Made by a program: the position numbers and the translations under genes
Notes under the pieces: generated by a model
The model's input: the letters and a program-made list of their open reading frames with translations, nothing else
What the model was told of the DNA's origin: nothing
Databases searched by the model: none
Source: Woeseiaceae bacterium
GTDB taxonomy: Bacteria; Pseudomonadota; Gammaproteobacteria; Steroidobacterales; Woeseiaceae
NCBI GenBank assembly: GCA_024640345.1
Contig: JAHEFD010000001.1
Location: 18,288-82,287, forward strand
DNA length: 64,000 nt
Reading direction: 5' to 3'
Shown: one piece after another, positions 14,435 through 40,812 of the stretch
Numbering within the stretch: the first letter of the stretch is position 1
Layout: each line of letters starts with the position of its first letter

Positions 14435-14444
14435 ACTAATCGCA

Positions 14445-19233: not shown

Positions 19234-19377
19234 GGATGAATCATAGCAGTCAAATCATGAGGCCAGCGAAGTCGCCAGGCGCGACGTTACAAACAGATAC
19301 AAATTGAGACTAATTTGAAACCATTTTCTTCCGTACCCCGGCCAGAATCAATCCTCGCAAACTCGGAGGACAACCGA

Positions 19378-20745
19378 ATGTACAAATTTCCCAAAATATT
19401 CTCGCTGGCTGCGATGCTCGCCCTCGCTGCTTGTAGCAGCGACGATGGCGTGGCCACGTCGCCACCAGTTCCGGCACCGGCACCGGAAAAGTTCAATATC
19501 CAGGTGTTGCATGCTTCTCCCGATGCGCCCGCTGTCAACGTTCTGGTTAACGGATCAACTGCGGTGCCCGGGCTCGAGTACAAGCAAGGTTCTGCGGCTA
19601 TTTCGCTTGCCGTTGGCAGTTACGACATCCAGGTCGACGGGAATACCCCGGGCGGCATGGTGACCGTAATCCCTTCAACAAACCTGACCTTTGTTGCAGA
19701 CACGCTTTACAGCGTTGTGGCTGTTGGTGACGTAGCAAACATTGAACCGGTCATACTTGAACAGCCCGATGGGGCGGTTACGGCCGGCAATGCACAAGTC
19801 AGGATTCTTCATGCTGCGCCGCTGGCGCCGCAAGTTACCGTTTACGCGACGGCGCCCGGGGCCGATCTGACGACAGAACCCGCGGTTGGCACTTTTTCGT
19901 TTAAGGAAGATCTGGGGCCGATCCAGGTCCCCGCTGGTGACTACCAGATCCGAGTTACCTTAGCGAATCAACCGGGCTCCGTCGTTTTTGATTCCGGCCC
20001 AATTACCCTGGGAGATGGCAACGACTTGCTGGTTGCAGCTGTTGAGAACACAACGGCTGGATCCTCAGCACCCATCAGCCTGGCCGTCCTGGATACGACC
20101 GGTTCTTCAGAGATTCTGGACATCGAAACCCTTGCAGATCTTCGTGTCGTGCACGCTTCACCAGACGCGCCTGCGGTTGATATCGTGGTCAACGATGATC
20201 TGGCCAATCCCCTGGTGCCCGGCATCGAGTTTCCGGATTTCACCGGGTTCGTCAGTGTCCCGGCCGATGACTACAATGTAAAAGTAGTTGAGCCTGTTTC
20301 CGGGCTAACGCCGATTGACGTGAACCTTAGCCTTGAGGCCGGCGTTACCTACACCGTTGTCGCGCTGGATACGCTGGCGGGCGGAAACATCACCGCGCTT
20401 GTCGCCGACGACGATCCGAGGCGAGTAGCCACGGAGGCGAAGGTTCGCCTGATTCATGCATCGCCGACGGCCGGCAATGTCGATATCTGGGTGACGGCTG
20501 AAGGCGCCGATATCACCGCAGTGCCGCCACTGCTTACTGATGTGCCGTTGGGCGCCAATACTGGATTTCTGTCGCTAGCGGAAGGAATCTATGATGTGAA
20601 TATTGCTCCGACAGGTACGACAGTCGCGGCAATAACGGCGACGATCAATATCGTTGGCGGGGGCATCTATACGGCTATCGCGCGTGATGCAGAAGGTGGT
20701 TTCGGCGGACTTCCGCTTGGACTGATTCTGATGGACGATTTTTGA
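19378..20745 (+). CDS. DUF4397-type repeat lipoprotein
   Basis: ATG at 19378 after GGAGGA. Lipobox LALAACSS. Four internal repeats start VLHASPDAPAVNV / ILHAAPLAPQVTV / VVHASPDAPAVDI / LIHASPTAGNVDI. Confidence 0.7.
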   Translation: MYKFPKIFSLAAMLALAACSSDDGVATSPPVPAPAPEKFNIQVLHASPDAPAVNVLVNGSTAVPGLEYKQGSAAISLAVGSYDIQVDGNTPGGMVTVIPSTNLTFVADTLYSVVAVGDVANIEPVILEQPDGAVTAGNAQVRILHAAPLAPQVTVYATAPGADLTTEPAVGTFSFKEDLGPIQVPAGDYQIRVTLANQPGSVVFDSGPITLGDGNDLLVAAVENTTAGSSAPISLAVLDTTGSSEILDIETLADLRVVHASPDAPAVDIVVNDDLANPLVPGIEFPDFTGFVSVPADDYNVKVVEPVSGLTPIDVNLSLEAGVTYTVVALDTLAGGNITALVADDDPRRVATEAKVRLIHASPTAGNVDIWVTAEGADITAVPPLLTDVPLGANTGFLSLAEGIYDVNIAPTGTTVAAITATINIVGGGIYTAIARDAEGGFGGLPLGLILMDDF

Positions 20746-20759
20746 TTTACCCTGTGACA

Positions 20760-21821
20760 ATGACTAACTTAGCCCAATTAGCAAATGAACTGGCCGAGTC
20801 CGGATATATTCCGGACTCGGTCATTCGTCGCGGTATTCGCCACCTGGTGGACCAAAGGAAATCCCAGGTCCGGTACATGAATGGCAAGGACCTTGATGCT
20901 TTCGTCGCTATGATGAAACACTCAGAGATCGCCCTGGTTCCGGACCTCGCCAATGAGCAGCATTACGAGGTACCAGCAGAATTCTTTTCTGCAACACTGG
21001 GCGAACACAGGAAGTACAGTTGCTGTTACTGGGGCGCTGGTGAATCCACCTTGGACCAGGCGGAAGCGGCAGCGCTTGAAATCACTTGCGCGCGCGCAGG
21101 TCTCACTGACGGACAGGACATCCTGGAGCTCGGATGTGGCTGGGGATCCCTGTCGCTGTGGATGGCCAGTAACTATCCTGCATCAAAAATCACCTCCGTT
21201 TCGAATTCCGCGTCGCAGAAAGAATATATCGATGCCCGGGCGGCTGAACGCGGATTGAAAAATATCCGTGTCATTACAGCAGACATGAACGACTTTGATA
21301 TCGGCCAAAAATTCGATCGGGTTGTATCCGTTGAAATGTTTGAGCACATGCGCAACTACGAAGTTCTGTTCAGGCGCATTGCCGGCTGGTTGAGAGACGA
21401 CGGCCTGTTCTTTATGCATATTTTCTGCCATCGCAGTGCCGCGTACGAATATATAGACCAGGGGCCGCAGGACTGGATGAGTCGGCACTTTTTTTCCGGC
21501 GGCATTATGCCAAGCGGAGATCTTCCTCTGCGGTTCCAGGAGCATCTCAAACTGGAAGAGCAGTGGCGCTGGAGTGGCAAGCAATATCAGCAGACCGCCG
21601 AGGCGTGGTTGCAAAACATGGATGCCAGAAAATCGGTTGCCTTTCCGGTGATCGAGAGAACCTACGGCGCCGAGGATGCCCGCCGCTGGTGGATGCGCTG
21701 GCGCATATTTTTTCTGGCCGTTAGCGAGATGTTTGGAACGGATGGCGGAAGGGAGTGGGGTGTTGGTCACTACCTTTTCAGATCCAGAGTGGGACAGAGT
21801 GCCCCGGGGAAAGAGCAATGA
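20760..21821 (+). CDS. CFA-synthase-like SAM-dependent methyltransferase
   Basis: SAM motif ILELGCGWGSLSLW and mycolic/cyclopropane synthase-like core (YSCCYW...). The start could also be GTG 20754 or TTG 20742. Confidence 0.8.
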   Translation: MTNLAQLANELAESGYIPDSVIRRGIRHLVDQRKSQVRYMNGKDLDAFVAMMKHSEIALVPDLANEQHYEVPAEFFSATLGEHRKYSCCYWGAGESTLDQAEAAALEITCARAGLTDGQDILELGCGWGSLSLWMASNYPASKITSVSNSASQKEYIDARAAERGLKNIRVITADMNDFDIGQKFDRVVSVEMFEHMRNYEVLFRRIAGWLRDDGLFFMHIFCHRSAAYEYIDQGPQDWMSRHFFSGGIMPSGDLPLRFQEHLKLEEQWRWSGKQYQQTAEAWLQNMDARKSVAFPVIERTYGAEDARRWWMRWRIFFLAVSEMFGTDGGREWGVGHYLFRSRVGQSAPGKEQ

Positions 21822-22354
21822 ACCTGTTAATTAACGTCGTCGCCTTCAAAATAGGCTGGGTTTCAGCGGTATTTGGTGGTGCCAACGAGATGGCGCTTGT
21901 TGGCACGGCTATCGTGCTCGTAGCGATCGGAATCCACCTTTTTGTGGTTGCCGAACCGTCCCGTGAATTCATGCTGATCGCGCTGGTTGGCCTGATTGGG
22001 CTTTCTGTGGACAGTATCCTGGTCGCCGCCGGCTGGCTCACCTATTCGAGCGGTACGATAGTTTCCGGACTGGCGCCATACTGGATCGTTGCCATTTGGA
22101 TGTTGTTCGCAACGACGCTCAATGTGGCATTTCGCTGGCTCCAGACCAGGCTGGTTCTTGCGGCGGCGATAGGGGCCATCTCGGGACCTGCTTCTTATTA
22201 TGCTGGTTCGAGAATCGGGGCAGTTGAATTCACCGAGTTTACCCCGGCAATTGTCGCGCTGGGTTTGTCCTGGATGATCCTTTTCCCCGCTTTCCTGATG
22301 CTGGCGAAATCGCTTGATGGCACCCAGGCTCCCGTTCTGCAAAGCAGGGTTTGA
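21818..22354 (+). CDS. DUF2878-like integral membrane protein
   Basis: MNLLINVVAFKIGWVSAVFGG..., about 5 TM segments. ATGA overlap with the upstream stop. Confidence 0.55.
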   Translation: MNLLINVVAFKIGWVSAVFGGANEMALVGTAIVLVAIGIHLFVVAEPSREFMLIALVGLIGLSVDSILVAAGWLTYSSGTIVSGLAPYWIVAIWMLFATTLNVAFRWLQTRLVLAAAIGAISGPASYYAGSRIGAVEFTEFTPAIVALGLSWMILFPAFLMLAKSLDGTQAPVLQSRV

Positions 22355-22356
22355 CC

Positions 22357-23154
22357 ATGGAACTCAATGCATTTGATATTCATAGCTGGCTAACTGCACT
22401 TTATGCACTGACCCTTTTTGCTCTGGCCGGGTGGCTTTACAGTATTTATCGTAAAGACGTAAGCATCGTCGACAGTATGTGGTCGTTAATGTTTCTCATC
22501 GCAACGGCGATATACGCGCTTAGCGCAGATTTGCCTGGCTCTCGATCATTGCTGGTAACGGTATTGGTCGCGGTCTGGGCTCTTCGCCTGGCAATTTATA
22601 TAACGTGGCGCAACTGGGGTGAGGCAGAGGACTACCGGTATCAGAAAATTCGCGAGAATAACTCTCCGAATTTCGAGTTCAAGAGCCTGTATATCGTTTT
22701 CGGGCTACAGGCTGTCCTCGCATGGTTCATCTCGATGCCATTGCTGATAGCTGTAAGTGGAGATATGCCGCTGGGGTATCTGGACGCTGCCGGTACCATA
22801 ATCTGGCTGACCGGTTTCATATTCGAGACCGTTGGCGACCTGCAACTTGCGAAGTTCAAATCTGATCCCCGCAACAAGGGGCGCGTCCTTGATTCCGGGC
22901 TTTGGCGTTTCACGCGACATCCTAACTACTTCGGCGAGTTTTGTATCTGGTGGGGCTTCTACCTGATCGCAGTCCCGGTTGGTGGCTGGTGGTCGATCGT
23001 GTCGCCTCTGTTGATGTCCTTCCTGTTGTTGCGCGTGTCCGGTGTGGCAATGCTTGAGAAAGACATCGGCAACAGGCGCCCGAAGTACGCCGAGTACATC
23101 GAAAGAACAAATACGTTCTTTCCGGGTCCCGCAAAGGGCAGGGCTTCGTCGTGA
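22357..23154 (+). CDS. DUF1295 / steroid-5-alpha-reductase-like membrane protein
   Basis: RFTRHPNYFGEFCIWWGFY signature, multi-TM. ATG lies 3 nt after the upstream stop. Confidence 0.7.
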   Translation: MELNAFDIHSWLTALYALTLFALAGWLYSIYRKDVSIVDSMWSLMFLIATAIYALSADLPGSRSLLVTVLVAVWALRLAIYITWRNWGEAEDYRYQKIRENNSPNFEFKSLYIVFGLQAVLAWFISMPLLIAVSGDMPLGYLDAAGTIIWLTGFIFETVGDLQLAKFKSDPRNKGRVLDSGLWRFTRHPNYFGEFCIWWGFYLIAVPVGGWWSIVSPLLMSFLLLRVSGVAMLEKDIGNRRPKYAEYIERTNTFFPGPAKGRASS

Positions 23155-23816
23155 AGAAAATTTCAAACCTGGCTTTTGGAGTAAGTGCAGTAGTCGTCAT
23201 GTTCGTCGCAACGGCTTCCGCGTGGGCGACTATTGATGCACCTGTAAACGAGCGAGAGTGGAAGTTCAACGTTTACCTCGATGATTCCAGAATTGGTCAT
23301 CATCATTTTTATCTTGCGAAGCATGACGATTCCTGGCTGATAACAACGGAGGCTGATTTCAAGGTAAATTTCCTTGTCTTCACGGCCTACCGTTATCAGC
23401 ATTCAAATCGGGAGGTCTGGCGGAATAACTGCCTGCAGCAGATTGATTCCACTACGAACGCGAACGGAACGCCGTTTTCCGTCAGTGGGTCAAGCAACGA
23501 CGAGGGTTTCACCGTAGAGACGAACCAGTTTCGTGACGATCTGGGCGAATGCGTGAAGACTTTTGCTTACTGGAATCCGGAGATCCTCCGCGAGTCCCGC
23601 TTGCTCAACTCTCAAACCGGAGAACTGTTGCCAGTCGCCGTAACCCGGGAAACCGAAGAAGCCCTGGTGGTTAAGGGAGAGAAAGTCCCGGCAATACGCT
23701 ATCACCTCGAGGCCAAGGATATGAAACTGGATATCTGGTATTCCACCGATCAGCGTTGGCTGGCACTCGAATCAACCGTCAAGGGCGGTCGCAAGCTTCG
23801 CTACGAACTGACCTAG
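23151..23816 (+). CDS. Secreted hypothetical protein of the lipid operon
   Basis: GTG start with GTGA overlap. Signal peptide MKKISNLAFGVSAVVVMFVATASAWA. Beta-rich sequence with no motif I can name confidently. Confidence 0.5.
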   Translation: MKKISNLAFGVSAVVVMFVATASAWATIDAPVNEREWKFNVYLDDSRIGHHHFYLAKHDDSWLITTEADFKVNFLVFTAYRYQHSNREVWRNNCLQQIDSTTNANGTPFSVSGSSNDEGFTVETNQFRDDLGECVKTFAYWNPEILRESRLLNSQTGELLPVAVTRETEEALVVKGEKVPAIRYHLEAKDMKLDIWYSTDQRWLALESTVKGGRKLRYELT

Positions 23817-23826
23817 GAGCATCACA

Positions 23827-24366
23827 TTGTCGAATCTAAAGAAAGTCTGTCGTTCGCTGCTGCCGTTAGTCGCAATTATCGGGGCGGGTGGCTGCGCGAA
23901 TAGCCAGCCGCCACTGGCAACGGTCGATTATGTCGACCTCGAGCGTTTCATGGGGGATTGGTATGTCATAGCCAATATTCCGACCTTTGTAGAAAAGGGC
24001 GCGCACAACGCCGTTGAGACGTATGCAATGAACGACGACGGAAGTATTGCGACAACTTTTGTATTCCGAAAAGATGGCTTTGATGGAAAAAGAAAAGAGC
24101 ACAATCCAAGGGGCTTTGTAACTGATACAGAGTCCAACGCTGTTTGGGGTATGCGTTTCATCTGGCCGATCAAGGCCGATTATCGAATCGTCTATCTCAC
24201 CGAAGACTACTCCAAAACTGTGATCGCAAGAAACAAGCGAGACTATGTCTGGATCATGGCCAGGGAGCCTGAGATCGACGCTGAGGAATATGCAGCGCTC
24301 GTGCGAATGATTGGCGACATGGGCTACGACGTCACGAAGATCAAAAAGGTCCCACAGCAATGGTAG
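23827..24366 (+). CDS. blc: Bacterial lipocalin (Blc-like outer-membrane lipoprotein)
   Basis: TTG start 8 nt after AGGAG. Lipobox IGAGGCAN. Lipocalin motif FMGDWYVIANIP. Confidence 0.8.
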   Translation: MSNLKKVCRSLLPLVAIIGAGGCANSQPPLATVDYVDLERFMGDWYVIANIPTFVEKGAHNAVETYAMNDDGSIATTFVFRKDGFDGKRKEHNPRGFVTDTESNAVWGMRFIWPIKADYRIVYLTEDYSKTVIARNKRDYVWIMAREPEIDAEEYAALVRMIGDMGYDVTKIKKVPQQW

Positions 24367-25649
24367 GGCGTCCGAAGATCGCAATTGTCGGAACCGGTAT
24401 TGCCGGAAACGTAGTCGCGAATAGACTAAACAAAGACAACGACATTACCGTCTACGAGTCGAGCGACTACATCGGCGGCCATACGAACACGGTTGAAGTG
24501 CCGGACGGTGGCAATGTGCTGGCGCTGGATACCGGCTTTATCGTGTTTAACGATCGGACCTATCCGAATTTCATCCGGTTACTCGATGAGCTTGGCGTTG
24601 ATTCCCAGGAAAGTGCAATGAGCTTCAGCGTACAGGCGGAGGAAGCCGCGCTCGAGTACAGCGGATCGACCCTGAATACCCTGTTCGCACAACGCCGTAA
24701 TATTTTCCGACCGTCGTTTCACCGCATGGTCAGGGATATCCTCCGGTTTAATCGCGAAGCCCGCGGCACGTTGCCGAACGGCGATCTGAATATGTCGCTG
24801 GCCGAGTTCCTCGCCCGCGGCCACTACTCCCGCGAATTTATTCAGCATTACCTCATACCGATGGGCGCAGCGATCTGGTCTGCCGAGCCCGAGATGATGG
24901 AGCGAATGCCTGCCAATTTCTTTATTCGGTTTTTCGAAAATCACGGTTTGCTGGATATTAAGAACCGGCCGGTCTGGCGGGTGATCAAAGGCGGCTCCAA
25001 ACAGTATGTCGATGAACTGGTCAAGGACCATCGGCAGCACATCAGGCTAAATTGCCCTGTCGAGCGGGTGGAGCGAAATCCGGATAACGTCATAGTCCAC
25101 GCAGCGGGGCGCAAATCAGAAACGTTCGATTACCTGTTCTTCGCTTGTCACAGCGACCAGGCTTTGAAGTTACTCGAAAGGCCCGACCGGGTGGAGCGCG
25201 ATATCCTCGGGGCAATTCCATACCAGCACAACGAAGCGATTCTGCATACCGATGAAAGCCTCATGCCAAAACGCCGACTGGCGTGGGCCGCGTGGAATTA
25301 TCACCTGCCATCGAATCTCAATGAGAGAGTAACGCTGACCTATCACCTGAATACGCTTCAGGGGCTGCAGACCCAAAGGCAATATTTCGTGACGCTGAAC
25401 AGTCGCGATTTGATCGATCCGAAAAAGATAATCAGGTCAATTGATTACGATCATCCGGTTTTCACGCTGCCCGGCGTCGCAGCGCAGCAGCGCCATGCAG
25501 AAATCGATGGGTTGAACCGGAGCTATTACTGCGGTGCTTACTGGCGTTACGGATTCCATGAGGATGGCGTGGTCAGCGCGCTGAATGCACTGAAACACTT
25601 CGATGCGAGGGACGAGGATGCACAGCAGTATTTTCAGCGGGCAGGTTAG
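24360..25649 (+). CDS. FAD-dependent oxidoreductase (amine-oxidase / desaturase-like)
   Basis: KIAIVGTGIAGNVVA dinucleotide motif. 429 aa. 7-nt overlap with the lipocalin gene. Confidence 0.8.
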   Translation: MVGRPKIAIVGTGIAGNVVANRLNKDNDITVYESSDYIGGHTNTVEVPDGGNVLALDTGFIVFNDRTYPNFIRLLDELGVDSQESAMSFSVQAEEAALEYSGSTLNTLFAQRRNIFRPSFHRMVRDILRFNREARGTLPNGDLNMSLAEFLARGHYSREFIQHYLIPMGAAIWSAEPEMMERMPANFFIRFFENHGLLDIKNRPVWRVIKGGSKQYVDELVKDHRQHIRLNCPVERVERNPDNVIVHAAGRKSETFDYLFFACHSDQALKLLERPDRVERDILGAIPYQHNEAILHTDESLMPKRRLAWAAWNYHLPSNLNERVTLTYHLNTLQGLQTQRQYFVTLNSRDLIDPKKIIRSIDYDHPVFTLPGVAAQQRHAEIDGLNRSYYCGAYWRYGFHEDGVVSALNALKHFDARDEDAQQYFQRAG

Positions 25650-26388
25650 TCATTGGCGAAAGTCGCCGGTCGGCCACTCGTTCAGATATCGTGTATTCAT
25701 GATGTACCTGGATCTTGATGAACTCGACCAGGTGTTCGCTGGCCGCTGGTTGTGGTCAACGCGCAGGCCGGCACTCGCACGGTTTCGTCGCGAAAAATAT
25801 TTTGGCAACCCGGCGGTTTCGTTGAAGGCATCCATCGCTGACCTGGTATATGAGCGCACAGGCGCTCGACCACCAGGTCCGATTCGGCTTCTTACTAATT
25901 TGAGTTACTTCGGCTATTGCTTCAACCCGTTGAGCATCTACTACTGCTTTGATGAAAACGATGAACGCGTAGAGGCAATTGTTGCCGAAGTCAGCAACAC
26001 CCCCTGGGGCGAGCGGTGCTGTTACGTTTTGTCTGGAGACATGGATACAGGTGACGGCGATACGCATCGATATAGATCCGATAAAGAAATGCACGTTTCC
26101 CCTTTCATGAGTATGGATATCACTTATGACTGGCTGCTGACGGAGCCGGGCAGGGGTCTGGTGGTAAGAATTGATAACTGGTCAGATGAAAATCGCTTGT
26201 TCGGCGCCTCCCTGAACCTCAGAAGAAATGAAATCACAGGGTTTTCGCTTGCGCGAGTTCTGACACGATTCCCGTTTATGACGCTGAAGATCATTGTCGG
26301 GATTCACTGGCAAGCACTTCGGCTGTGGCTGAAAGGTTGTCCCTTGGTTACTCACCCCGACAAAAAAGCACCGTTAGGAGCAAATTAA
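25618..26388 (+). CDS. DUF1365 protein
   Basis: HSFRYRVFMMYLDLDEL signature. The start overlaps the upstream gene by 32 nt. Confidence 0.75.
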   Translation: MHSSIFSGQVSHWRKSPVGHSFRYRVFMMYLDLDELDQVFAGRWLWSTRRPALARFRREKYFGNPAVSLKASIADLVYERTGARPPGPIRLLTNLSYFGYCFNPLSIYYCFDENDERVEAIVAEVSNTPWGERCCYVLSGDMDTGDGDTHRYRSDKEMHVSPFMSMDITYDWLLTEPGRGLVVRIDNWSDENRLFGASLNLRRNEITGFSLARVLTRFPFMTLKIIVGIHWQALRLWLKGCPLVTHPDKKAPLGAN

Positions 26389-27662
26389 TGAGTCACGTAT
26401 CAACGACAGGCACCCGCCGGGAAATTGGTCGGGCCAATTCGAAACCCGGGTTTCTCGACAACCTGTCTCGAAAGATGGTTCTTGCCCGATTGGATGGTTT
26501 GGAGATTGGGCGGCTGAAGATTACAGACGAAGGCGAGACCAGAACTTACGGTGTGGCTGGTGAGCTGACCGCAACCATTACCGTTTCGGATTCACGATTT
26601 TACAGTTCGCTGGCAACGGGTGGTGCACTGGGGGCGGCCGAGGCCTACATGCTTGGCTACTGGAACTGCGATGATTTGACTACCGTCGTGAGGATTCTCG
26701 TCCGGAACAGGCAGGTCCTTGAAAGCATAGAAAGCGGGTTGGCTCGCATTTCGGCGCCATTGGCAAAGTTCGCACACTGGTTCAATCGGAATTCCAGGAG
26801 AGGTAGTCGGCGCAATATCGCCGCCCATTACGACCTGGGTAACGATTTCTTCAAACTGTGGCTTGACGAGTCAATGATGTACTCGGCTGCCGTATTTGAG
26901 AAAGAGGGTATGACGCTGGAGGAGGCTTCGATCGCGAAGCTCGACAGGATTTGCAAGAAATTACAGTTATCTCCGGAGGATCATGTCCTGGAGATTGGTA
27001 CCGGATGGGGCGGCTTTGCCGTCTACGCTGCCGAGAATTATGGTTGCCGGGTAACGACGACGACCATTTCATCGGAGCAGTACGCCTATGCCAAAGAGAG
27101 AGTCAGGGCGGCAGGTCTTGAAGACAGAATCAGATTGCTACTCGAAGACTATCGTGATCTGGATGGCGCCTACGACAAGATAGTGTCTATTGAGATGGTA
27201 GAAGCGGTCGGCCAGGAGTTTCTCAATGACTACTTTGCACAGTGCAGCAAACTGCTCAAGTCAGATGGCATGATGCTCCTGCAGTCGATCACAATCGCCG
27301 ACCAGAGGTATCAGGCGGCACTCAGGTCCGTCGACTTCATCCAGCGATATATTTTTCCGGGCGGGTTCCTGCCGTCGGTGACGGCGATCACCGCCTCCCT
27401 GACTGCAGCGACTGACATGCGTGTCTATCATCTCGAAGACATAGGCGCCCACTACGCTGATACGCTCCGTCACTGGAGAGATCGTTTCTTTTCCAAATTC
27501 GACAAGATCTGGTCTATGGAGTACGGAGAAGAATTTCTGAGAATGTGGCAGTACTATTTTTGTTATTGCGAAGGCGCATTCATTGAGCGCGCCATCGGGA
27601 ACGTACAGGTATTGCTCGTGAAGCCGGACTGTCGGCGGAACCCGATCGTTCCGCCTCTTTAG
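26388..27662 (+). CDS. Cyclopropane-fatty-acyl-phospholipid-synthase family protein
   Basis: TAATG overlap start. SAM motif VLEIGTGWGGFAVYAA. C-terminal ...WQYYFCYCEGAF typical of the CFA synthase family. Confidence 0.85.
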   Translation: MSHVSTTGTRREIGRANSKPGFLDNLSRKMVLARLDGLEIGRLKITDEGETRTYGVAGELTATITVSDSRFYSSLATGGALGAAEAYMLGYWNCDDLTTVVRILVRNRQVLESIESGLARISAPLAKFAHWFNRNSRRGSRRNIAAHYDLGNDFFKLWLDESMMYSAAVFEKEGMTLEEASIAKLDRICKKLQLSPEDHVLEIGTGWGGFAVYAAENYGCRVTTTTISSEQYAYAKERVRAAGLEDRIRLLLEDYRDLDGAYDKIVSIEMVEAVGQEFLNDYFAQCSKLLKSDGMMLLQSITIADQRYQAALRSVDFIQRYIFPGGFLPSVTAITASLTAATDMRVYHLEDIGAHYADTLRHWRDRFFSKFDKIWSMEYGEEFLRMWQYYFCYCEGAFIERAIGNVQVLLVKPDCRRNPIVPPL

Positions 27663-27707: not shown

Positions 27708-28724
27708 TTACTTCCTGGCTGCCTCGTAACCGGCCTCCAGGTAAAGCTGGGCTGCTTCCATTGTGCAGGGTGCCTGGATGATTTCGCGATCGGCCAGTTT
27801 GCGCCAGTGGTGCGAGAACGTAACCGGTTCGGCAAGGTACACGGGATCCGTTACCGTAATTTCGGCCGCGAGATGCAGGCCACCATCCGACATCGTGAAT
27901 CTTTCCACCAGGTGCTTCTGCTCGCTTGAGCTGATGCCGGTGTGGATACCCCACTCATCTGCGATGAAATTGGTGGTCTCGACGACCAGCGTGTCACCCT
28001 CAAACCACCCGACAGAATGGCCCATCTTGGATGGTGCTCCGACTTCGTGATCGCGATCGAAGTGCACAACCCGAAGTTCTTCCATTAACTCGCGTTCCAT
28101 CACGAGCGTGTTGGCATCGGGCCTGGTAAAAACGACCGGGTAGGGAATGAGCATCGATTTCGGTGGGCCGGGATTACCGCAAGTCACCATCGGATTCTGG
28201 TCTTCGCTGAAGTTGTCGACCTGCGCCTGTCCAAGTTTTGACAAGGGCCAGCCAACCGGCGGCTTGTAGTGTGGCTTGAAACCGCCGGGATCGTCGCGCT
28301 TCCAAAGACCCGTGAAATCTGTAGAGGGCGTTATCTCTGCTGCGACATCCGTGGACGCACCAACGCGCGTGCCGTCGCCGGTTTCAGCCCATTGAAGGCC
28401 CGTGTAGTGTCGGTCCGAATCTTTATCGTGGGCGCCGTACCAGATAATTCTGTCGCCCGGTTTCCAGCTTGTCTTGCTCCAGCCCTTGGCAGCCATCGCC
28501 GGTGGATGTTCCATCTCGATCGTGTATTCGACTATCCGTCCCTTGTCGTCCGGCCCTTTAACCTTCAGGTAAACATGGGGCATGGTCCAGCCGTACTTGA
28601 CCACGACACCTTTGTAGGTGCGGACGTCGTCCATATTGAGCGAGGCATGAGAGTGATGAGCAAACCCGGCAACAGGAACAGCAAGCCAGGCGAACAGAGC
28701 GAGCAGATGTATACGCTTGATCAT
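27708..28724 (-). CDS. Secreted two-domain protein: N-terminal HHS (DUF6152-like) domain plus C-terminal WxGDTLVVET domain
   Basis: ATG at 28724. Signal peptide MIKRIHLLALFAWLAVPVAGFA is followed by HHSHAS, then WTMPH. The C-terminal half is similar to ORF 61773..62591. Confidence 0.7.
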   Translation of the reverse strand: MIKRIHLLALFAWLAVPVAGFAHHSHASLNMDDVRTYKGVVVKYGWTMPHVYLKVKGPDDKGRIVEYTIEMEHPPAMAAKGWSKTSWKPGDRIIWYGAHDKDSDRHYTGLQWAETGDGTRVGASTDVAAEITPSTDFTGLWKRDDPGGFKPHYKPPVGWPLSKLGQAQVDNFSEDQNPMVTCGNPGPPKSMLIPYPVVFTRPDANTLVMERELMEELRVVHFDRDHEVGAPSKMGHSVGWFEGDTLVVETTNFIADEWGIHTGISSSEQKHLVERFTMSDGGLHLAAEITVTDPVYLAEPVTFSHHWRKLADREIIQAPCTMEAAQLYLEAGYEAARK

Positions 28725-28728
28725 AGTC

Positions 28729-29952
28729 TTAGTTCCCCATACCAGGCAGTGCCCGATTATCCTCGGCGAGGCAATTCGCCTCCCTGACGTCGCCATGCAG
28801 CATGCGATCGCGGAACTTCGTGTGCCGCCATTCCCCGATCCAGTGCTCGGGGTCAGTCATGATGAAATCCATCTTCAACGTGTTGCCGTCATTGATCATC
28901 GAAATACGTTCAGTAATCTTGAGCTGGTTGCCCGTAAAGATGCCCTGCTGGATCAGGTGGTTCTCGTCTGTAAAACCCTCCGTTTCAACCACCAGTGTGT
29001 CGCCTTCCCAGTGGCCCAGTGACTCACCGTTCCAGTTGGGATCGCGCAGATTCGCCGGTTGACGCTCACGGCCATCGAGAAAAATCACGCGATACTCGTT
29101 GTTGAGCCTGGAGACCATGAAGATTGCTGTCGGGTACTGCAGCATCATCATGGATCCGAATCGTGTCATAAGTCTCGGCATGCCGGCCGGATAACAGAAA
29201 GCCGTTGGCTCGGCGTAGCGCTCTCCTTTGGTCGCATAACTGAGGTATTCGTCGTAGATCCGCTTTCCTTTCTCCGTGAATTCCGGGTGAGGTTTGAATT
29301 CGTAGCGACCATAATGCGGCTGCTCCGAGTCTTCACCCCGAAACGCCCAGGTGCCGGTAAGATCAAACGGTGGTTTTGGCCTGGGCTTGGCCAGGTTCTC
29401 GGCATCAAGGGCGCCGAGTACCGGATTCGCAGCCTTCGAGGGAATCGGCAGCTGCGGCGGCCGTGTTCGCGCTTCGCGCTTTTGCCATGTGTCACCAGCC
29501 GGTGGTGGAACATAGGGCGTCAGCGACGGGATTTGTTGCGGTACCTCTTCCGCTACGGTCGGGGTTTCCGCATATTCCATGCCGAACGTTTTGCCATTTG
29601 CGAGTGTCATTCCCTGCAATAGCCCGCCGGGTTTTCCCGACTTCAGTGGATTAATCAGAACCGTGATCTTGTCGCCTACGGACAGGGAATCGCGCGTAAA
29701 TCCATTCGTGACCATTTCTGTCGGGCTGCCACCCTCAATCAGCCACGGCTCCGACTTGCCATCTTTCTCGACGTCAATGGTGATGCTCAGGTGAGGGTTT
29801 CTCCAGACAAACTTCGCGACTGTACCGGATACAGTCGTCGTTTCGCTTCTGTCGAAAGCAACCGCAGAGTGGTGAGCCGGGGCGATCCGCGGCCAACTGA
29901 GGACCGACATCACGAGGATTGTTAGGAGCTTATTTTGGGCTGACAGGTGCAT
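28729..29952 (-). CDS. Secreted two-domain protein, paralog of 27708..28724
   Basis: ATG at 29952 (GTG alternative at 29982). Signal ...VLSWPRIAPA is followed by HHSAVAF, then WRNPH. C-terminal HWEGDTLVVETEGF. Confidence 0.7.
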   Translation of the reverse strand: MHLSAQNKLLTILVMSVLSWPRIAPAHHSAVAFDRSETTTVSGTVAKFVWRNPHLSITIDVEKDGKSEPWLIEGGSPTEMVTNGFTRDSLSVGDKITVLINPLKSGKPGGLLQGMTLANGKTFGMEYAETPTVAEEVPQQIPSLTPYVPPPAGDTWQKREARTRPPQLPIPSKAANPVLGALDAENLAKPRPKPPFDLTGTWAFRGEDSEQPHYGRYEFKPHPEFTEKGKRIYDEYLSYATKGERYAEPTAFCYPAGMPRLMTRFGSMMMLQYPTAIFMVSRLNNEYRVIFLDGRERQPANLRDPNWNGESLGHWEGDTLVVETEGFTDENHLIQQGIFTGNQLKITERISMINDGNTLKMDFIMTDPEHWIGEWRHTKFRDRMLHGDVREANCLAEDNRALPGMGN

Positions 29953-30163: not shown

Positions 30164-31393
30164 GTGAAAACCAATCGAAGACGTTTCCTTGCCGGATTAA
30201 GTGCGGTGGCACCGCTTGGCAGCATTATGTCGCAGAGCAGTATGGCAGCCGATGCGAGGGCAGCTGTAACACCCGACTATTTTGCCGACCTGGGGGTAAA
30301 GCCGTTTATCAATGCCATCGGCCCCTATTCATCGCTGGGCGGTAACGAAATGTGGCCGGAAGTCATCGAAGCGATGGATTACGCTATTCGAAACAAGGCA
30401 AAGATGACCGATCTTCATGATGCGGTCGGACTGCGTATCGCCGAACTGACCGGCGCGGATGCCGCTATGGTTTCCTCGGGCGCAACCGGCGCGATCATCC
30501 TGGGCACGGCAGCCTGTATGACAAAGGGCGACGAGGAAAAGATCGAACGCATTCCGGACACGTCGGGCATGCCCAACGAAGTGCTTATCCTGAAAAGTCA
30601 GCGTTACATGTACGACCGCTCGATAAAGGCACCCGGCGCGCTGCTCGTGGAAGTCGAAACTGAGGATGATATCCGCGATGCCATCAGCGACAAAACAGCA
30701 ATGATGTTCTACCTGCTGAATCGACCGGACGACCTCAAAATCGATGTCGACGATTACATCGCGCTGGGGAAGGAGTATGACATCCCGATCTTCTGCGATG
30801 CAGCGACCACGGTGCCGCCGGTCAGCGGCATCAGGTCGACCGTAGAAAAAGGTTTCGACCTCGTCTGCTATTCAGGCGGCAAAGGATTGCGAGGGCCATA
30901 CAGTGCGGGACTGTTACTCGGCAGGAAGGATCTTGTGCGATTCGCGCGCATGAATGGCTCACCGAATCATCGTGCCTATGGCAGGAGTATGAAAGTCGCA
31001 CCTGAGGAATACCTTGGCATGATGGTCGCTGTCGAAACGAGCCTGAAATTCGATGAAGAGGTCGAGTACGACCGCCAGTTGAAATCAGTCAATGCGATGG
31101 GCCGGGAACTCGTAAGACTACCCGGCGTTACCGTAGAGACCGCGGTGCCAAATGCTGAGGCACGTGAACCCTATATTGAAGTGCAATGGGATAAGCGTAT
31201 CTACGATGTCAGTGTTGCCGACCTGAAGCAGGCGCTGCGGGATGGTGAACCATCAATCGAGGTCAGGGCGCTGTTCCTGTCAAACAATCAACTGCACCTG
31301 ACAGCTGTTGCCTTAAAGAGTGGCGAGGCCGAAATCGTAACCAGGCGGGTCACGGAAATACTGAATTCCCGCCGTACCGGGGTGGAGGCGTAA
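30164..31393 (+). CDS. Tat-signal SelA-like (fold-type I) PLP-dependent enzyme
   Basis: GTG start. Twin-arginine motif NRRRFLAGLSAVAPLG...AADA. PLP-lysine region CYSGGKGLRGPYSAGLLLG resembles SGDKLLGGPQAG of the SelA/DgaE family. Confidence 0.7.
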   Translation: MKTNRRRFLAGLSAVAPLGSIMSQSSMAADARAAVTPDYFADLGVKPFINAIGPYSSLGGNEMWPEVIEAMDYAIRNKAKMTDLHDAVGLRIAELTGADAAMVSSGATGAIILGTAACMTKGDEEKIERIPDTSGMPNEVLILKSQRYMYDRSIKAPGALLVEVETEDDIRDAISDKTAMMFYLLNRPDDLKIDVDDYIALGKEYDIPIFCDAATTVPPVSGIRSTVEKGFDLVCYSGGKGLRGPYSAGLLLGRKDLVRFARMNGSPNHRAYGRSMKVAPEEYLGMMVAVETSLKFDEEVEYDRQLKSVNAMGRELVRLPGVTVETAVPNAEAREPYIEVQWDKRIYDVSVADLKQALRDGEPSIEVRALFLSNNQLHLTAVALKSGEAEIVTRRVTEILNSRRTGVEA

Positions 31394-32599
31394 ATGGCCA
31401 GGAGACGCACGGTTTTAAAATCCATTGCCGGGGCATTCTCGTTGCCCATGCTGGGTACAGCCGGTGCTGCGGCGACAATGAAGCCGGCGGCACGTGACTA
31501 TTTTCGTGAGCTTGGACTGACGCGCTTCATCAACGCGGCCGGCGCCTATTCTGCCTACGGAGGCGCAAGAATGCGCCCCGAAGTGGTCGAGGCCATGCGC
31601 TACGCCGCAAACAACAAAGTGAAGATGAAAGAGCTCCATGATGCAGTCGGTGAGCGCATTGCCGAACTTGTCGGGGCAGACGCGGCCATGGTGACGTCCG
31701 GAGCAACGGCATCGATCGTGCTCGGAACCGCGGCATGCATGACACTTGGAGACGAAGACCAGATGCGGCAGTTGCCTGACACGACGGGCATGAAGAATGA
31801 AATTATCATTCAGAAGAAGCACAGGTACACCTATGACCGGTCGCTGACGGTTGCCGGAGCGAAGCTTGTCGAAGTCGAGAATGAAAGCGATGTTCGTCGA
31901 AAGGTTTCTGACAGGACGGCGATGATGTTTTTCCTTCAACCGACGCAGGATGGCGATAACATTCCTGCGGCCAGTTACATCGAGCTCGCGCAGGAACTCG
32001 GCGTGCCTTCGTTTTGCGATGCTGCAACAACGACTCCGCCGGCCCGGAATGTCGTTGATGGTGTTAGCACCGGGTTCGACCTGATCTGTTATTCGGGCGG
32101 CAAGGGATTGCGCGGTCCGTACAGTGCCGGTTTGCTCCTTGGCAGGAAAGACCTGATCGGGTACGCACGTCGTCACTCCGCGCCGAACGATATATCGATC
32201 GGTCGTGGCATGAAGGTGTCCGCAGAGGAGTATCTCGGCATGCTTGTCGCCCTGGAGGCGGGACTGCGTGTTTCCGAGGCTGATGATTTTGCTTACAAGA
32301 ACGAACGCTTCCGCAGGATCATCGCAGAACTGGATGACGTGCCAGGAGTCCGCACGAAAGTGTTTGTATCAGAGGGGCACGCGAAGGAGCTCTATCTCGA
32401 TATCGATTGGGATACCGACATCATCGCCATGAGTCCACAGGATCTCGTCGAGGAATTACGTAACCACGATCCCTCTGTCGAAGTTCGGCTTTTTATTTTC
32501 TCCGGTGGCAGGATTCAGCTTTCAGCGACGGTCATGGATGAAGGCGAGGATGAACTCGTCGGACAGATTATTCGCGGGATATTGTTGTCGCATGCCTGA
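31394..32599 (+). CDS. Tat-signal SelA-like PLP-dependent enzyme, tandem paralog
   Basis: ATG directly after the upstream TAA. MARRRTVLKSIAG... twin-Arg motif. Same CYSGGKGLRGPYSAGLLLGRKDL motif and collinear similarity to 30164..31393. Confidence 0.7.
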   Translation: MARRRTVLKSIAGAFSLPMLGTAGAAATMKPAARDYFRELGLTRFINAAGAYSAYGGARMRPEVVEAMRYAANNKVKMKELHDAVGERIAELVGADAAMVTSGATASIVLGTAACMTLGDEDQMRQLPDTTGMKNEIIIQKKHRYTYDRSLTVAGAKLVEVENESDVRRKVSDRTAMMFFLQPTQDGDNIPAASYIELAQELGVPSFCDAATTTPPARNVVDGVSTGFDLICYSGGKGLRGPYSAGLLLGRKDLIGYARRHSAPNDISIGRGMKVSAEEYLGMLVALEAGLRVSEADDFAYKNERFRRIIAELDDVPGVRTKVFVSEGHAKELYLDIDWDTDIIAMSPQDLVEELRNHDPSVEVRLFIFSGGRIQLSATVMDEGEDELVGQIIRGILLSHA

Positions 32600-35040: not shown

Positions 35041-35231
35041 CGGTCACTCCTCTGCTGCTGTATCGAATTTCAGTTTCGTCGTGACCGCACGGGTCGCAAA
35101 TGCCGGTACGCCAGGCGAATCCATGGCGATACCTTTCGTCAGGTTCATATAGTCTGGTCTTGCTCCGGACAAGTGTAGCCCCAGCAGATAGAATTAGTCA
35201 CTCTCTTAAAGTCGTGCCGTATGAGGAAGCA

Positions 35232-36833
35232 ATGAAAAGCAGGATAGTTACGCCAGGCATCGTGGTGCTTCTTATGCAGCTTACCGCCTGTGCGCCTCCA
35301 GCGGGCGAAACAGCTTCCGTGACGGTCGATACGCTTATTACCGGCGGCCTTGTCTACGATGGTTCGGGAGAATCACCTGGTTTGCTCGATATTGGTATCA
35401 GCGAAGGAAGGATTTCGTTCATCGGCGACGCAGTGGCGGCGGACATATCGTCGCCGGACGTTATCGATGCGAAGGGACTTTGGGTAACGCCGGGGTTCAT
35501 CGATGCACACAGTCATGCCGAGCTGGATGAGGACTACGGCAAGGATGCCCTGCCGTATCTCTACCAGGGAATCACGACCGTTGTGCTCGGCCTGGATGGT
35601 GATGGCACGAGTGACATTGGTGATCGACTGGCGTCCTGGGAAAAGAACGGCATTGGCGTAAATGGAATCGCCTTCGTCGGCCACGGCTTCATGCGCAGCG
35701 CGGTGATTGGTAGAGAAGATCGTGACGCTACGCCCGATGAACTTGAAGAAATGCGCGGGCACGTCAGGAAGGCGATGGAAGAGGGTGCGTTCGGGCTATC
35801 AACGGGTCTCTTTTATGTACCCGGGACCTATGCATCAACCGACGAAGTCATTGCACTGGCACAGGAAGCTGCCAAATTTTCAAATGCGATCTACGACACC
35901 CATGACAGGGACCTTGGAGCGGTCTACGAGGGAGTCGGCTACGACGCCTCGGTCGAGGAAGGGATCAGGATAACCGAGGAGTCCGGACTGCGCGGAATTT
36001 TCAGCCACTACAATCTCCAGGGTGCGCACAACTACGGGCGTGCCGATGTCGGTGCACGACTCCTGAATGATGCCCGCGATCGCGGAGTGGATATCTGGGC
36101 GGCACAACATCCGTATACTGCGACTCAAAGCAATCTGCGTTCTTACACAATTCCGGATTGGGCCTCAGCAGGCAGCCGCGAGGAAATGATCGCTCGATTC
36201 GACAATCCGGAAACGGCTGCGGAAATCATCGCTGCGACCAATGCAATGCTCGAGATACGTGGTGGAGCCGACAAGATTCTGTTCGCAGATCCTCGCCCGG
36301 ATCTGAACGGAAAGACGCTGGCGGATGTTGCAGCCGAGAGAGAGCTTTCGCCGGCCGAAACTGCGCAATGGATTCTTCGCGACAGCAACGCCGTCGTAAT
36401 GAACCTCGAGCTCTACGATCATAACAATACGCGGCTCCTGGCAAAGGAACCGTGGATGATGACCTGCACCGATGGCCGTACCCCGCGGCCAGATCAACCG
36501 ATAACACACCCTCGAACGTTTGGTGCATTTCCGAAAAAGATGCGTCATTTCGTTTTCGAAGAAAAGCTCCTGGCGCCTGAATTCGTGATTCGAAGTTTTT
36601 CCGGACTCGCTGCCGATTTTTACCGGCTTCCGGATCGTGGCTATCTTCGCGAAGGCTATGCGGCCGATATCGTGGTGCTGGACCCGGAAACGTACCGGGA
36701 CAAAGCGACGTTCGGAGAGCCGCAACAATATGCCACCGGCATCGAACAGTTATTCGTCAACGGGCAATCAGCTATCCGCGACGGAAAGTCGACAGGCGCG
36801 CTGGCCGGCGTGCCGATCAGGAGGCCGCGGTAA
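35232..36833 (+). CDS. N-acyl-D-amino-acid deacylase (D-aminoacylase) family amidohydrolase, lipoprotein-like
   Basis: ATG after AGGAAG. LMQLTACAPP. GGLVYDGSG...IDAKGLWVTPGFIDAHSHAE pattern. Confidence 0.75.
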   Translation: MKSRIVTPGIVVLLMQLTACAPPAGETASVTVDTLITGGLVYDGSGESPGLLDIGISEGRISFIGDAVAADISSPDVIDAKGLWVTPGFIDAHSHAELDEDYGKDALPYLYQGITTVVLGLDGDGTSDIGDRLASWEKNGIGVNGIAFVGHGFMRSAVIGREDRDATPDELEEMRGHVRKAMEEGAFGLSTGLFYVPGTYASTDEVIALAQEAAKFSNAIYDTHDRDLGAVYEGVGYDASVEEGIRITEESGLRGIFSHYNLQGAHNYGRADVGARLLNDARDRGVDIWAAQHPYTATQSNLRSYTIPDWASAGSREEMIARFDNPETAAEIIAATNAMLEIRGGADKILFADPRPDLNGKTLADVAAERELSPAETAQWILRDSNAVVMNLELYDHNNTRLLAKEPWMMTCTDGRTPRPDQPITHPRTFGAFPKKMRHFVFEEKLLAPEFVIRSFSGLAADFYRLPDRGYLREGYAADIVVLDPETYRDKATFGEPQQYATGIEQLFVNGQSAIRDGKSTGALAGVPIRRPR

Positions 36834-39246: not shown

Positions 39247-40812
39247 TTATGGATTGCACGACGGGTGTTGGCGATCAATCACTTCGCCGGATAACGTACC
39301 GGTCAGTTTTCCGTCAGAAATCGCCGGCATACCGTTAACGATGAGGTAGGAAACGCCTGTTGCGAGCCTTGTCGGATTTTCGAAATCGGCGACCGGCTGG
39401 TACGTATCCAGGTCGATAATGGCAATGTCAGCCTTGCGACCCTCGGCCAGGTAGCCGCGGTCGCAAAGGTAAAAAGAATCTGCAACCAGGCCCGAGCTGC
39501 GATGGACGAATTTTTCCATCGACATGAGTGTGCTCTCGGCAACGAAGTCCCGATAGGCTTTCGGATAAGAGGCATACTTTCGCGGATGCCCCGTTGAGCC
39601 GTCCGAGCCGGTCATTACCCAGTCCTGGATCGCAATGGCATTAATGTCGGGCGGATCCATGTTGAACGAGGCAATAGAGGGGTCGCCTGCCCGAACGACC
39701 TCGACTGCTGCATCGACCGGCTCCATGTCCAGGTGTTCGGCAATTTCTCCGAGCGTCATGCCGCGCCACTCGCTTTCCCCCGTGACCAGCAAGGAGTCTT
39801 TTCCGCCCCGGCGAAAAAGATTGTCTTCCATTTCCTTCTGAATCTGGTCTTTGAGGTCAGGATTGTCCAGGCGCCCGAACATCGCTTCCTCGGAATCGGC
39901 CCTGACCCATCCGGGTATAAGCGCGCTGGCGAACCGCGTGCCCGAGGCCTGCCAGGGATACTGGTCTGCCGTGACCTCGACGCCCCTTTCCCGCGCCATT
40001 TCGACTAACGCGATGATGTCACCGCTTTGTCCCCAGACGTCGCGGCCAAGGGCTTTCAGATGCGCGGCGTGCACGGGAATTTCCGCTTCTTCGCCGATCT
40101 GTATGAGTTCCTTGATGGAGCCCAGTACCCCAATGTTGTAGGAGCTTTCGTCGCGCAGGTGAGAGTCATAGACGCCGCCGAACCGGGCGGCGACTTTCGC
40201 CAGCGCAACGACCTCTGCGGTGCTGGCAAAACTGCCCGGTGTATAAAAAAGTCCTGTCGACAAACCGAGCGCCCCGGCCCGCATTTCGTCCTCGACAAGT
40301 GCCTGCATCTGGCGCATTTCCTCATCGGACGGAGCCCGATTTTCCTCTCCCATCACTGATCTACGAACCTGGTTGTGGCCCGCGAAAAAACCGGCATTGG
40401 TTCCGATTCCCTGCTCGTACATTTTCCGGACATTGGCCGGGCGATCAGGAATTCCATCCCCGTCATTGCCGATAAATACGGTGGTAACACCCTGCGCCAG
40501 GTAGTTGGCATTCTCGTTATGGTCGGGGTCCAGCAGATCCTCGCGAGCGTGTGTATGCGGGTCGATAAACCCGGGCACGACGACGAGACCACGGGCCTGG
40601 ATAACCAGGTCGGCTTGCGCGTCCTCGGCAGCATTCATCGATACGATGCGGTCCCCCGTAACGCCGATATTGACCTGGCGCGCGGGAGATCCGGAGCCGT
40701 CGTACACCGTGCCGTTGACGATCAGAATATCAAATCGAGTTTCCTCATCAGCGGCTCCGCAGGCGGCGAGAAAGGAAGCCGCCAAAAACATGGGTACCAT
40801 TGTCCGGATCAT
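39247..40812 (-). CDS. N-acyl-D-amino-acid deacylase family amidohydrolase, lipoprotein-like
   Basis: FLAACGA. NGTVYDGSG...VVPGFIDPHTHA. Paralog of 35232..36833. Confidence 0.75.
   Translation of the reverse strand: MIRTMVPMFLAASFLAACGAADEETRFDILIVNGTVYDGSGSPARQVNIGVTGDRIVSMNAAEDAQADLVIQARGLVVVPGFIDPHTHAREDLLDPDHNENANYLAQGVTTVFIGNDGDGIPDRPANVRKMYEQGIGTNAGFFAGHNQVRRSVMGEENRAPSDEEMRQMQALVEDEMRAGALGLSTGLFYTPGSFASTAEVVALAKVAARFGGVYDSHLRDESSYNIGVLGSIKELIQIGEEAEIPVHAAHLKALGRDVWGQSGDIIALVEMARERGVEVTADQYPWQASGTRFASALIPGWVRADSEEAMFGRLDNPDLKDQIQKEMEDNLFRRGGKDSLLVTGESEWRGMTLGEIAEHLDMEPVDAAVEVVRAGDPSIASFNMDPPDINAIAIQDWVMTGSDGSTGHPRKYASYPKAYRDFVAESTLMSMEKFVHRSSGLVADSFYLCDRGYLAEGRKADIAIIDLDTYQPVADFENPTRLATGVSYLIVNGMPAISDGKLTGTLSGEVIDRQHPSCNP

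Follow-up and report, generated by a model that had tools for sequence, protein, structure and literature searches.

A predicted N-terminal His-His metal site on the OB-fold domain DUF6152, half of a candidate two-part periplasmic module

Proteins in which an N-terminal histidine serves as a metal ligand form a small but important class, which includes the lytic polysaccharide monooxygenases (LPMOs), CopC, PmoB and Ni- or Zn-binding families of domains of unknown function (DUFs). Here we compare this class with a secreted domain, DUF6152 (PF19649), that is encoded three times in a 64-kb stretch of DNA from a Woeseiaceae bacterium (this whole stretch is called the window hereafter), two copies lying side by side in the interval 27708–29952. 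We consider it somewhat likely, on balance, that DUF6152 carries a metal site, made of an N-terminal His-His doublet and His28, probably with Glu48 and Asp8, on an OB-fold, and that it is one half of a two-part periplasmic module. Four other bacterial families that were recognised by a signal peptide followed by a histidine all bind metal through His1 (PMC12537917), and recently characterised ones bind Ni, Co or Zn: IsDUF4198 binds Ni and the Neisseria DUF4198 protein Zcp binds Zn (PMC12537917; PMC12663993), while DUF6702 has been modeled with a tri-histidine site composed of His1, His28 and His32 (PMC12537917). A histidine at residue 1 is found in 2.6% of the cleaved proteins of the SignalP 6.0 training set (PMC12537917). 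DUF6152 is absent from this systematic search for N-terminal-His metalloproteins and from its supplements (PMC12537917). Although catalogued as a DUF, it has no function literature that we could find: no paper mentioning DUF6152 or PF19649 was retrieved, in line with the first-pass annotation of this DNA, which knew of no assigned function.

Judging from the translated open reading frames (ORFs), the window holds three copies of one two-part unit, two of them fused and the third split. The fused copies lie in tandem on the minus strand: the gene of a 407-aa protein (28729–29952; PF19649 score 92.6 bits, E 1.6e-26) ends 4 nt before the ATG (28724) of the gene of a 338-aa protein (27708–28724; 58.1 bits, E 1e-15), the most divergent of the paralogs. 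The split copy, 33 kb away on the plus strand, consists of a free-standing partner gene (61773–62591, 272 aa) followed by a free-standing DUF6152 gene (62584–62952; 91.3 bits, E 4e-26), the end of the former overlapping the ATG of the latter by 8 nt. The small DUF6152 gene encodes 122 or 124 aa, from ATG 62584 or 62578, and 62584 is the likelier start given the Shine-Dalgarno-like stretch GGAGAGG upstream.

The first-pass annotation had described the three proteins as secreted paralogs with HHS directly after a small-x-Ala site and a W-x-(N/M)-P-H motif about 25 aa further on, and had guessed that they belong to the DUF6152 type. Inspection of ORFs, leaders and codons bears this out. All three match PF19649, at 58–93 bits against a whole-protein gathering cut-off of 27 bits, and DUF6152 is their sole Pfam match at E≤0.1; NCBIfam yields no match for the window proteins. 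Each leader opens with a basic n-region, continues with a hydrophobic core and closes with a small-x-Ala site (A-x-A or G-x-A) directly before HHS, and in all three proteins the W-x-(N/M)-P-H motif occupies mature residues 24–28. The 407-aa protein reads MHLSAQNKLLTILVMSVLSWPRIAPA followed by HHSAVAFD...VWRNPHLSI, with a predicted signal peptide of 26 aa (29875–29952, ending in RIAPA, assigned by the family-wide −3/−1 rule), a DUF6152 domain encoded by 29572–29874, His1-His2 at 29869–29874, Asn-Pro-His28 at 29791–29799 and the conserved glutamate at position 47. The 338-aa protein reads MIKRIHLLALFAWLAVPVAGFA followed by HHSHASLN...GWTMPHVYL, with a 22-aa signal peptide (28659–28724, ending in VAGFA), a DUF6152 domain at 28350–28658, His1-His2 at 28653–28658 and Met-Pro-His28 at 28575–28583. 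On the plus strand, ORF 62578/62584–62952 reads MNKLMSAVVFVLLSSTLAMA followed by HHSSAMFN...QWSNPHVWI; here the signal peptide spans 62584–62643 and the mature 102-aa protein 62644–62949, with His1-His2 at 62644–62649, Asn-Pro-His28 at 62719–62727 and Glu48. The limits of the two fused domains are hmmsearch envelopes and their codons, like those of the motifs, were checked; the motif residues of the 407-aa protein fall in invariant columns of the alignment. The DUF6152 domains of the three window proteins are 31–35% identical, and the 338-aa and 407-aa proteins 23% identical over their full length. The recurrence of HHS is not due to chance, the proteins being homologues and the His-His doublet being invariant after the signal peptide throughout the family.

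The family is very large. A profile built from the window domains and five homologues and run against 1.84 billion cluster representatives matched 12,553 proteins (50%-identity clusters) at E≤1e-3 and 5,467 at E≤1e-10, in Proteobacteria and Acidobacteria from soil, freshwater and marine sediment. Ten longer representatives contained no Pfam domain other than PF19649 above cut-off. Conservation was assessed on the best 150 representatives, pairwise less than 50% identical, together with the three window proteins (n=153). His1 and His2 are kept in 150/150 representatives covering the position, and Pro27-His28 in 153/153, so that the three histidines singled out by the first-pass annotation are indeed invariant; Glu48 (in W-x-I-E) is present in 150/153, Ser3 in 144/150 and Asp8 (in F-D) in 135/151, and several Trp and Gly positions are near-invariant. 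For comparison, His1 is conserved in 79% of DUF4198 and 65% of DUF6702 proteins (PMC12537917). A separate set of 79 loci, obtained from other species by scanning one representative genome per GTDB species and drawn from Woeseiaceae, Steroidobacteraceae, Nevskiaceae, Sphingomonadaceae, Caulobacteraceae, Xanthobacteraceae, Micropepsaceae and Acidobacteriota, gave the same picture, with His-His following the leader in 113/113 of the DUF6152 ORFs counted.

The segment preceding the doublet has the features of a Sec signal peptide. The distance from the annotated start to His-His has a median of 25 aa; position −1 is Ala in 134/146 presequences, the remainder having Gly, Ser, Pro, Thr or Val there and none the Cys of a lipobox; A, V or S occupies position −3 in 127/146; and a strongly hydrophobic core and a basic n-region are found in 140/146 and 144/146, respectively. 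Twelve of the 146 presequences are annotated as longer than 45 aa, but they still display a signal-peptide-like segment directly before His-His, which suggests miscalled starts. On the basis of the −3/−1 rule and of conservation, mature DUF6152 is thus predicted to start at His1 after Sec export. Of the outcomes that, according to the first-pass annotation, would speak against its proposal, those accessible to sequence analysis (a predicted cleavage site elsewhere, variable histidines among homologues) did not occur.

As to the fold, the first-pass annotation had named LPMOs, CopC and PmoB as analogues, and modeling points elsewhere. The mature 102-aa protein was modeled with AlphaFold2 from a 77-sequence alignment, with a mean predicted local distance difference test score (pLDDT) of 92.7 and a predicted template-modeling score (pTM) of 0.84. 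A short helix at the N-terminus precedes three strands, a second helix and three further strands, and in this model DUF6152 is an OB-fold barrel. Foldseek retrieves only OB-fold proteins from the PDB (E about 2e-3, TM 0.5–0.6, identity 5–19%), the best matches being mitochondrial and bacterial single-stranded DNA-binding proteins (Rim1), PriB and the anticodon-binding domain of LysRS; single-sequence and profile searches of the PDB found no solved relative. The OB-fold model therefore indicates that DUF6152 is structurally unrelated to the beta-sandwich proteins LPMO, CopC and PmoB. The mature form of the fused 407-aa protein, modeled likewise (pLDDT 85.4, pTM 0.82), has a structured Pro-rich linker between DUF6152 and the partner module and about ten strands after a helical segment, and its pTM suggests a defined arrangement of two domains.

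With CopC and YcnI, DUF6152 shares the format of a small secreted beta-protein in which His1 after cleavage is conserved, as are nearby His, Glu and Trp residues, and which has a constant partner, either in an adjacent gene or in the same polypeptide (established properties of CopC and YcnI; PMC8424229). It differs from them in fold, CopC and YcnI being beta-sandwiches with no sequence relation to DUF6152 (only PF19649 was matched), in its invariant His-His doublet, in the lack of any cop/ycn-type regulator nearby, and in its partner, which is a soluble secreted domain or a lipoprotein whereas that of CopC and YcnI is a membrane transporter. The LPMOs (AA9–AA17), PmoB and X325 similarly owe their N-terminal His to cleavage, as predicted for DUF6152, and possess a conserved distal His. 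In the canonical copper brace, this second His and the amine and imidazole of His1 make up a T-shaped site of three nitrogens; the candidate distal ligands for a brace-like site in DUF6152 are the invariant His2 and His28. However, those proteins are immunoglobulin- or fibronectin-like sandwiches, whereas DUF6152 is modeled as a barrel of only about 100 residues and, unlike the LPMOs, lacks a carbohydrate-active context. Membership of the histidine-brace families and a histidine-brace fold (an immunoglobulin-like or cupredoxin-like beta-sandwich) were accordingly rejected, given the OB-fold model and DUF6152 as sole Pfam match, and our literature search found nothing joining the terms 'histidine brace' and 'OB-fold'. 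The DUF4198, DUF6702, Ang-1 and Ang-2 families ('anglerases') resemble DUF6152 in having a signal peptide followed by His and TonB-receptor or permease neighbourhoods. They are, in contrast, beta-sandwiches without an obligate soluble partner; PF19649 being the only Pfam match, membership of these families was rejected as well, and the likeness is functional, not familial.

Two OB-fold systems deserve mention. CusF is a small periplasmic OB-fold metallochaperone for Cu(I)/Ag(I), with an internal site made of His, Met, Met and Trp. A relationship with DUF6152 was rejected: hhalign gave a probability of 1.5% (with an approximate CusF query sequence), the 50 best Foldseek matches of the DUF6152 model do not include CusF, and DUF6152 has no conserved Met (columns at ≥60%), the mature 102-aa protein containing two. 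TIMP is likewise an OB-fold, in which residue 1 chelates the zinc of the protease. The DUF6152 domain contains no Cys at all, hence neither Cys1 nor disulfides, and membership of the TIMP/NTR group was rejected.

In both long proteins, DUF6152 accounts for the first ~125 residues only. The first-pass annotation had pictured a small domain, and the DUF6152 module that it described is present; however, roughly two thirds of the interval 27708–29952 encode a second conserved domain, beta-rich and about 200–250 aa long, which it had overlooked. This constant partner of DUF6152 (the 'C' module) shifts the picture from a small metal-binding domain to a two-part module. The C-terminal parts of the two fusions are homologous to each other and to ORF 61773–62591: the partner module spans 28732–29382 in the 407-aa protein (BLASTP to ORF 61773–62591, E 7e-16) and 27720–28337 in the 338-aa protein (E 6e-12), as delimited by the envelopes of a C-module hidden Markov model, and the product of the free-standing gene has its own signal peptide (ending in SFANA, directly before AELPDW; mature product encoded by 61839–62588). 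The 407-aa protein has 1966 homologues at E≤1e-3, the best 120 of which are about 400 aa long (384–456), and ORF 61773–62591 has at least 1208 at the same threshold; among the 120 partner homologues listed, none has a Pfam domain and the only name is 'hypothetical protein'. No Pfam or NCBIfam match was obtained for the partner domain at E≤0.1, nor any Pfam match at E≤1 for nine diverse members; single-sequence searches of the PDB retrieved nothing for it and its profile reached a best E of 0.18 against PDB sequences, and Foldseek on the fused model returned OB-fold matches only, none for the partner part.

An alignment of 39 partner sequences, from the window and from other genomes, revealed the motifs P-D-x-S-G-x-W, C-x-P-x-G-x-P-R and R-x-I-Y-x-D-G-R-x-H-P, as well as G-x-S-x-G-x-W-E-G-D-T-L-V-V-x-T, E-R, D-P...P-W and C-x-E-N. 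The two near-invariant cysteines are the sole Cys residues of each window copy (mature residues 227 and 368 in the 407-aa protein, 160 and 298 in the 338-aa protein, 70 and 214 in the product of ORF 61773–62591), which makes a disulfide likely in the partner domain. Some partner members elsewhere have lipoprotein-like leaders (e.g. L020:13166–13918 and L078:8351–9115, two of the 79 loci).

The link between the two domains extends well beyond the window. In the 79 loci, 9/119 DUF6152 ORFs are fused to the partner and 87/119 have a same-strand partner gene within 150 bp, upstream in 40 cases and downstream in 47, and the pairing is seen in Gammaproteobacteria, Alphaproteobacteria and Acidobacteriota. 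The two families also co-diversify, as far as sequence distances can tell: DUF6152 distances correlate with partner distances (Mantel r 0.62, the maximum of 500 null permutations being 0.15), and in 57/95 cases, versus about 3 expected by chance, the partner of the nearest DUF6152 from another locus ranks within the three closest partners. In two-domain proteins, DUF6152 comes first in 131/131, most of these forming one orthologous group and the set containing two independent representatives. The fixed order in fusions, together with the occurrence of either order as separate genes, fits a need for a free N-terminus. So does the single tandem DUF6152-DUF6152 protein seen (P0252), whose internal repeat lacks the HHS...FD segment and begins at the first strand, while retaining W-x-D-P-H and the Glu. 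Some operons contain one DUF6152 gene (D) and three or four partner genes (C), or partner genes only (D C C C C in L067; D C C C and C C C also occur among loci L067, L056 and L063), so that one DUF6152 may serve several partners.

From these observations we propose the following scheme. DUF6152 would be exported by Sec and cut by signal peptidase I directly before His-His, so that the mature OB-fold domain of about 100 residues would start with His1. The alpha-amino group and imidazole of His1, His2, and His28, presented by the W-x-N-P-H turn, would then form a mononuclear transition-metal site, to which Glu48 and Asp8 probably contribute. DUF6152 would be one half of a module of which the unnamed partner of about 200–250 aa, probably disulfide-bearing, is the other; we infer that they associate physically, and that the metal site of the resulting complex may serve the partner, by catalysis or by metal delivery. 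The first-pass annotation had suggested copper as a possibility. Cu, Ni, Co and Zn are all candidates, nothing favours copper over the other three, and other recently characterised N-terminal-His families bind Ni, Co or Zn, the DUF families among them preferring Ni or Zn (PMC12537917; PMC12663993). A link with lanthanides through pyrroloquinoline quinone (PQQ) dehydrogenases was set aside, a nitrogen-rich His site probably being a poor ligand set for lanthanides. More speculatively, and with a rather small chance of being right, DUF6152 and its partner may constitute a hitherto unrecognised and very widespread two-component periplasmic metalloenzyme, in which an OB-fold cap, a fold not known to carry such a site, bears a brace-like His-His metal and the partner a substrate pocket, paralogous pairs having diverged towards different small-molecule substrates in catabolic clusters.

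Several observations weigh against the proposed metal-binding module. In the models, the first ten residues are the least confident (mean pLDDT 77 in the small protein and 70 in the fused one). The partner has no invariant His, its near-invariant polar residues being Arg, Glu, Asp and the two Cys, so that the other half of a metal site is not apparent in it. Twenty-three of the 119 DUF6152 ORFs are neither fused nor accompanied by a same-strand partner within 150 bp, although among these are ORFs located where a contig ends and ORFs whose partner is encoded on the other strand. Genomes carry several copies, three in these 64 kb and up to four per 16-kb locus; such multiplicity, together with one DUF6152 for several partners, is unusual for a metal-trafficking protein. 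Finally, a Pfam scan of window ORFs that covered the genes on either side of the fused pair, those upstream of the split pair and other large ORFs turned up no metal-homeostasis gene, be it for a sensor, an efflux pump or a chaperone; the neighbours found are catabolic or unrelated (a cyclopropane-fatty-acid synthase, SelA-like pyridoxal-phosphate (PLP) enzymes, an FAA hydrolase, a PQQ dehydrogenase and amidohydrolases).

The alternative that survives best, although we regard it as unlikely, is that DUF6152 acts on its own as a periplasmic metal buffer or chaperone, like CopC, YcnI or Zcp: the N-terminal His would capture the metal and hand it to transporters or apo-enzymes, the neighbouring domain being a mere client or independent. 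The conservation of His1, His2 and His28 fits this idea as well as it fits the two-part module, and DUF4198, DUF6702 and Ang-1/2 have been described as binding or transport proteins with no clear catalysis (PMC12537917; PMC12663993). DUF6152 also sits occasionally in operons with membrane proteins, namely HupE/UreJ_2 (L079) and tandem DUF6644 (L035, L075, L066), and TonB-dependent receptors are encoded in about 19/79 loci, in the same operon in 7, but these counts, like those of the other neighbours given below, are raw numbers that are not scaled to gene abundance, and several come from one syntenic Woeseiaceae lineage. The taxa that carry the pair hold very many TonB-dependent receptors. Furthermore, a general buffer would not be expected to pair strictly, fuse and co-diversify with a single type of domain. 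The many paralogs per genome and the lack of metal regulators or transporters among the Pfam-scanned ORFs beside the window copies also speak against this idea.

We give a smaller chance to the possibility that a ligand other than a metal is bound or processed by the conserved His, Glu and Asp, or that these residues ligate the Fe or Co of a tetrapyrrole, the pair being a substrate accessory of periplasmic catabolism or uptake. OB-folds are classic ligand-binding folds, and the neighbourhoods are catabolic and variable: besides the TonB-dependent receptors, PQQ (quinohaemoprotein) dehydrogenases occur in 14/79 loci and amidohydrolases in 9/79, and SMP-30-like and FAD enzymes also recur near the pairs. 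Paralogous pairs are many and partner ORFs outnumber DUF6152 ORFs in the loci (142 vs 122), a situation that resembles the diversification of substrate specificity. On the other hand, no third gene is universally linked to the pair among the 79 loci, and the invariance of residues 1 and 2, along with the N-terminal-only placement of DUF6152 in fusions, points to a role of the alpha-amino group, which is typical of metal chelation and less so of the binding of organic ligands.

Two further explanations appear very improbable. DUF6152 could be an N-terminal plug, similar to TIMP or to the serralysin inhibitors, that inserts His1-His2 into the active site or metal centre of its partner or of another enzyme to regulate it; an OB-fold, a functionally critical residue 1 and an obligate partner would suit such a role, by comparison with TIMP, but the partner lacks an invariant set of metal ligands, DUF6152 lacks the cysteines of the TIMP/NTR disulfides, and no peptidase is consistently linked to the pair, a single M28 cluster being present in 4 loci. 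That His-His is an internal motif, cleavage occurring elsewhere or a membrane anchor being retained, would agree with a cleavage site deduced from the −3/−1 rule and conservation and with the 12 long presequences, but hardly with the leader statistics given above, long presequences included.

The preferred reading, that of a two-part module with an N-terminal metal site, receives two weak hints from gene neighbourhoods as to metals. In L079, a DUF6152 gene lies directly downstream, on the same strand, of a gene for a HupE/UreJ_2 permease of the Ang-1 type, whose signal peptide is directly followed by HTRSE; this permease gene (826–2037) lies itself downstream of a cytochrome c gene, and another HupE/UreJ_2 permease with a predicted mature N-terminal His is encoded in L035 (1369–2556). 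L001, a contig nearly identical to the split-pair locus of the window that extends past the 3' end of the latter, encodes downstream of the split pair (1568–5128) a secreted amidohydrolase (the corresponding window ORF would begin near 62880), a nitrile hydratase and a secreted polysaccharide deacetylase; the nitrile hydratase has a split beta subunit and an alpha subunit with the cobalt-type motif VCTLCSC. Secreted and apparently cytoplasmic proteins are thus encoded on one strand in this region.

DUF6644 proteins with four predicted transmembrane segments are encoded in 5 loci, in tandem (L035 9401–10531; L075 9318–10300; L066 7073–7576; L071 2324–3432; L023 2396–2863). They are about 160 aa long, the first of their four hydrophobic segments contains an invariant His, and their genes often form a tandem pair directly after the DUF6152/partner pair; in some lineages, DUF6644 may supply the system with a membrane component.

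Within the window, two genes lie upstream of the split pair and are divergent from it: one for a PQQ dehydrogenase that carries a cytochrome c domain at its C-terminus (58238–60298) and one for an FAA-hydrolase-family protein with a signal-peptide-like N-terminus (60486–61622). Their synteny with the split pair is kept in the Woeseiaceae loci L004, L005, L008 and L009. Divergent from the fused pair are two tandem paralogs with weak similarity to SelA/PLP enzymes (30164–31393 and 31394–32599), whose N-termini (MKTNRRRFLAGLSAVAPLG... and MARRRTVLKSIAGAFSLPMLG...) resemble export leaders, possibly of the Tat type. On the other side of the fused pair, a cluster (19315–27662) encoding DUF4397, a CMAS-like methyltransferase, DUF1295, a Blc-type lipocalin, an amine-oxidase-like flavoprotein, DUF1365 and a cyclopropane-fatty-acid-synthase-like protein ends convergent with the gene of the 338-aa protein. 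Four Amidohydro_3 paralogs are encoded within 32 kb (12659–14434, 35100–36833, 39247–40812 and 42390–44111), and amidohydrolases recur beside DUF6152 pairs in other genomes as well. The window further contains, on the minus strand, two tandem genes for TonB-dependent receptors of 879 and 896 aa (46630–49269 and 49642–52332), and two divergent paralogs combining TPR and Sulfotransfer_3 domains (52572–54584 on the minus strand and 55583–57562 on the plus strand) that flank an MTHFR-like gene (54690–55568). ORFs 14394–16511 (705 aa), 45562–46494 (310 aa) and 57616–58179 (187 aa) gave no Pfam match at E≤1e-5.

Three elements had no counterpart in the literature searched: the predicted His-His site at the N-terminus of an OB-fold domain, the obligate partner, which has no name and merits its own family definition, and the alternation of fused and split arrangements. 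If metal binding proves true, the N-terminal-His class would gain a very large family, set apart by its OB-fold, its obligate partner and the invariance of its His-His doublet; DUF6152 and the partner, both of unknown function, would receive their annotation jointly, and N-terminal-His metal chemistry would not be tied to beta-sandwich scaffolds. A single genome offers three natural variants of the unit, two fused and one split, in which the exact residues concerned are defined.

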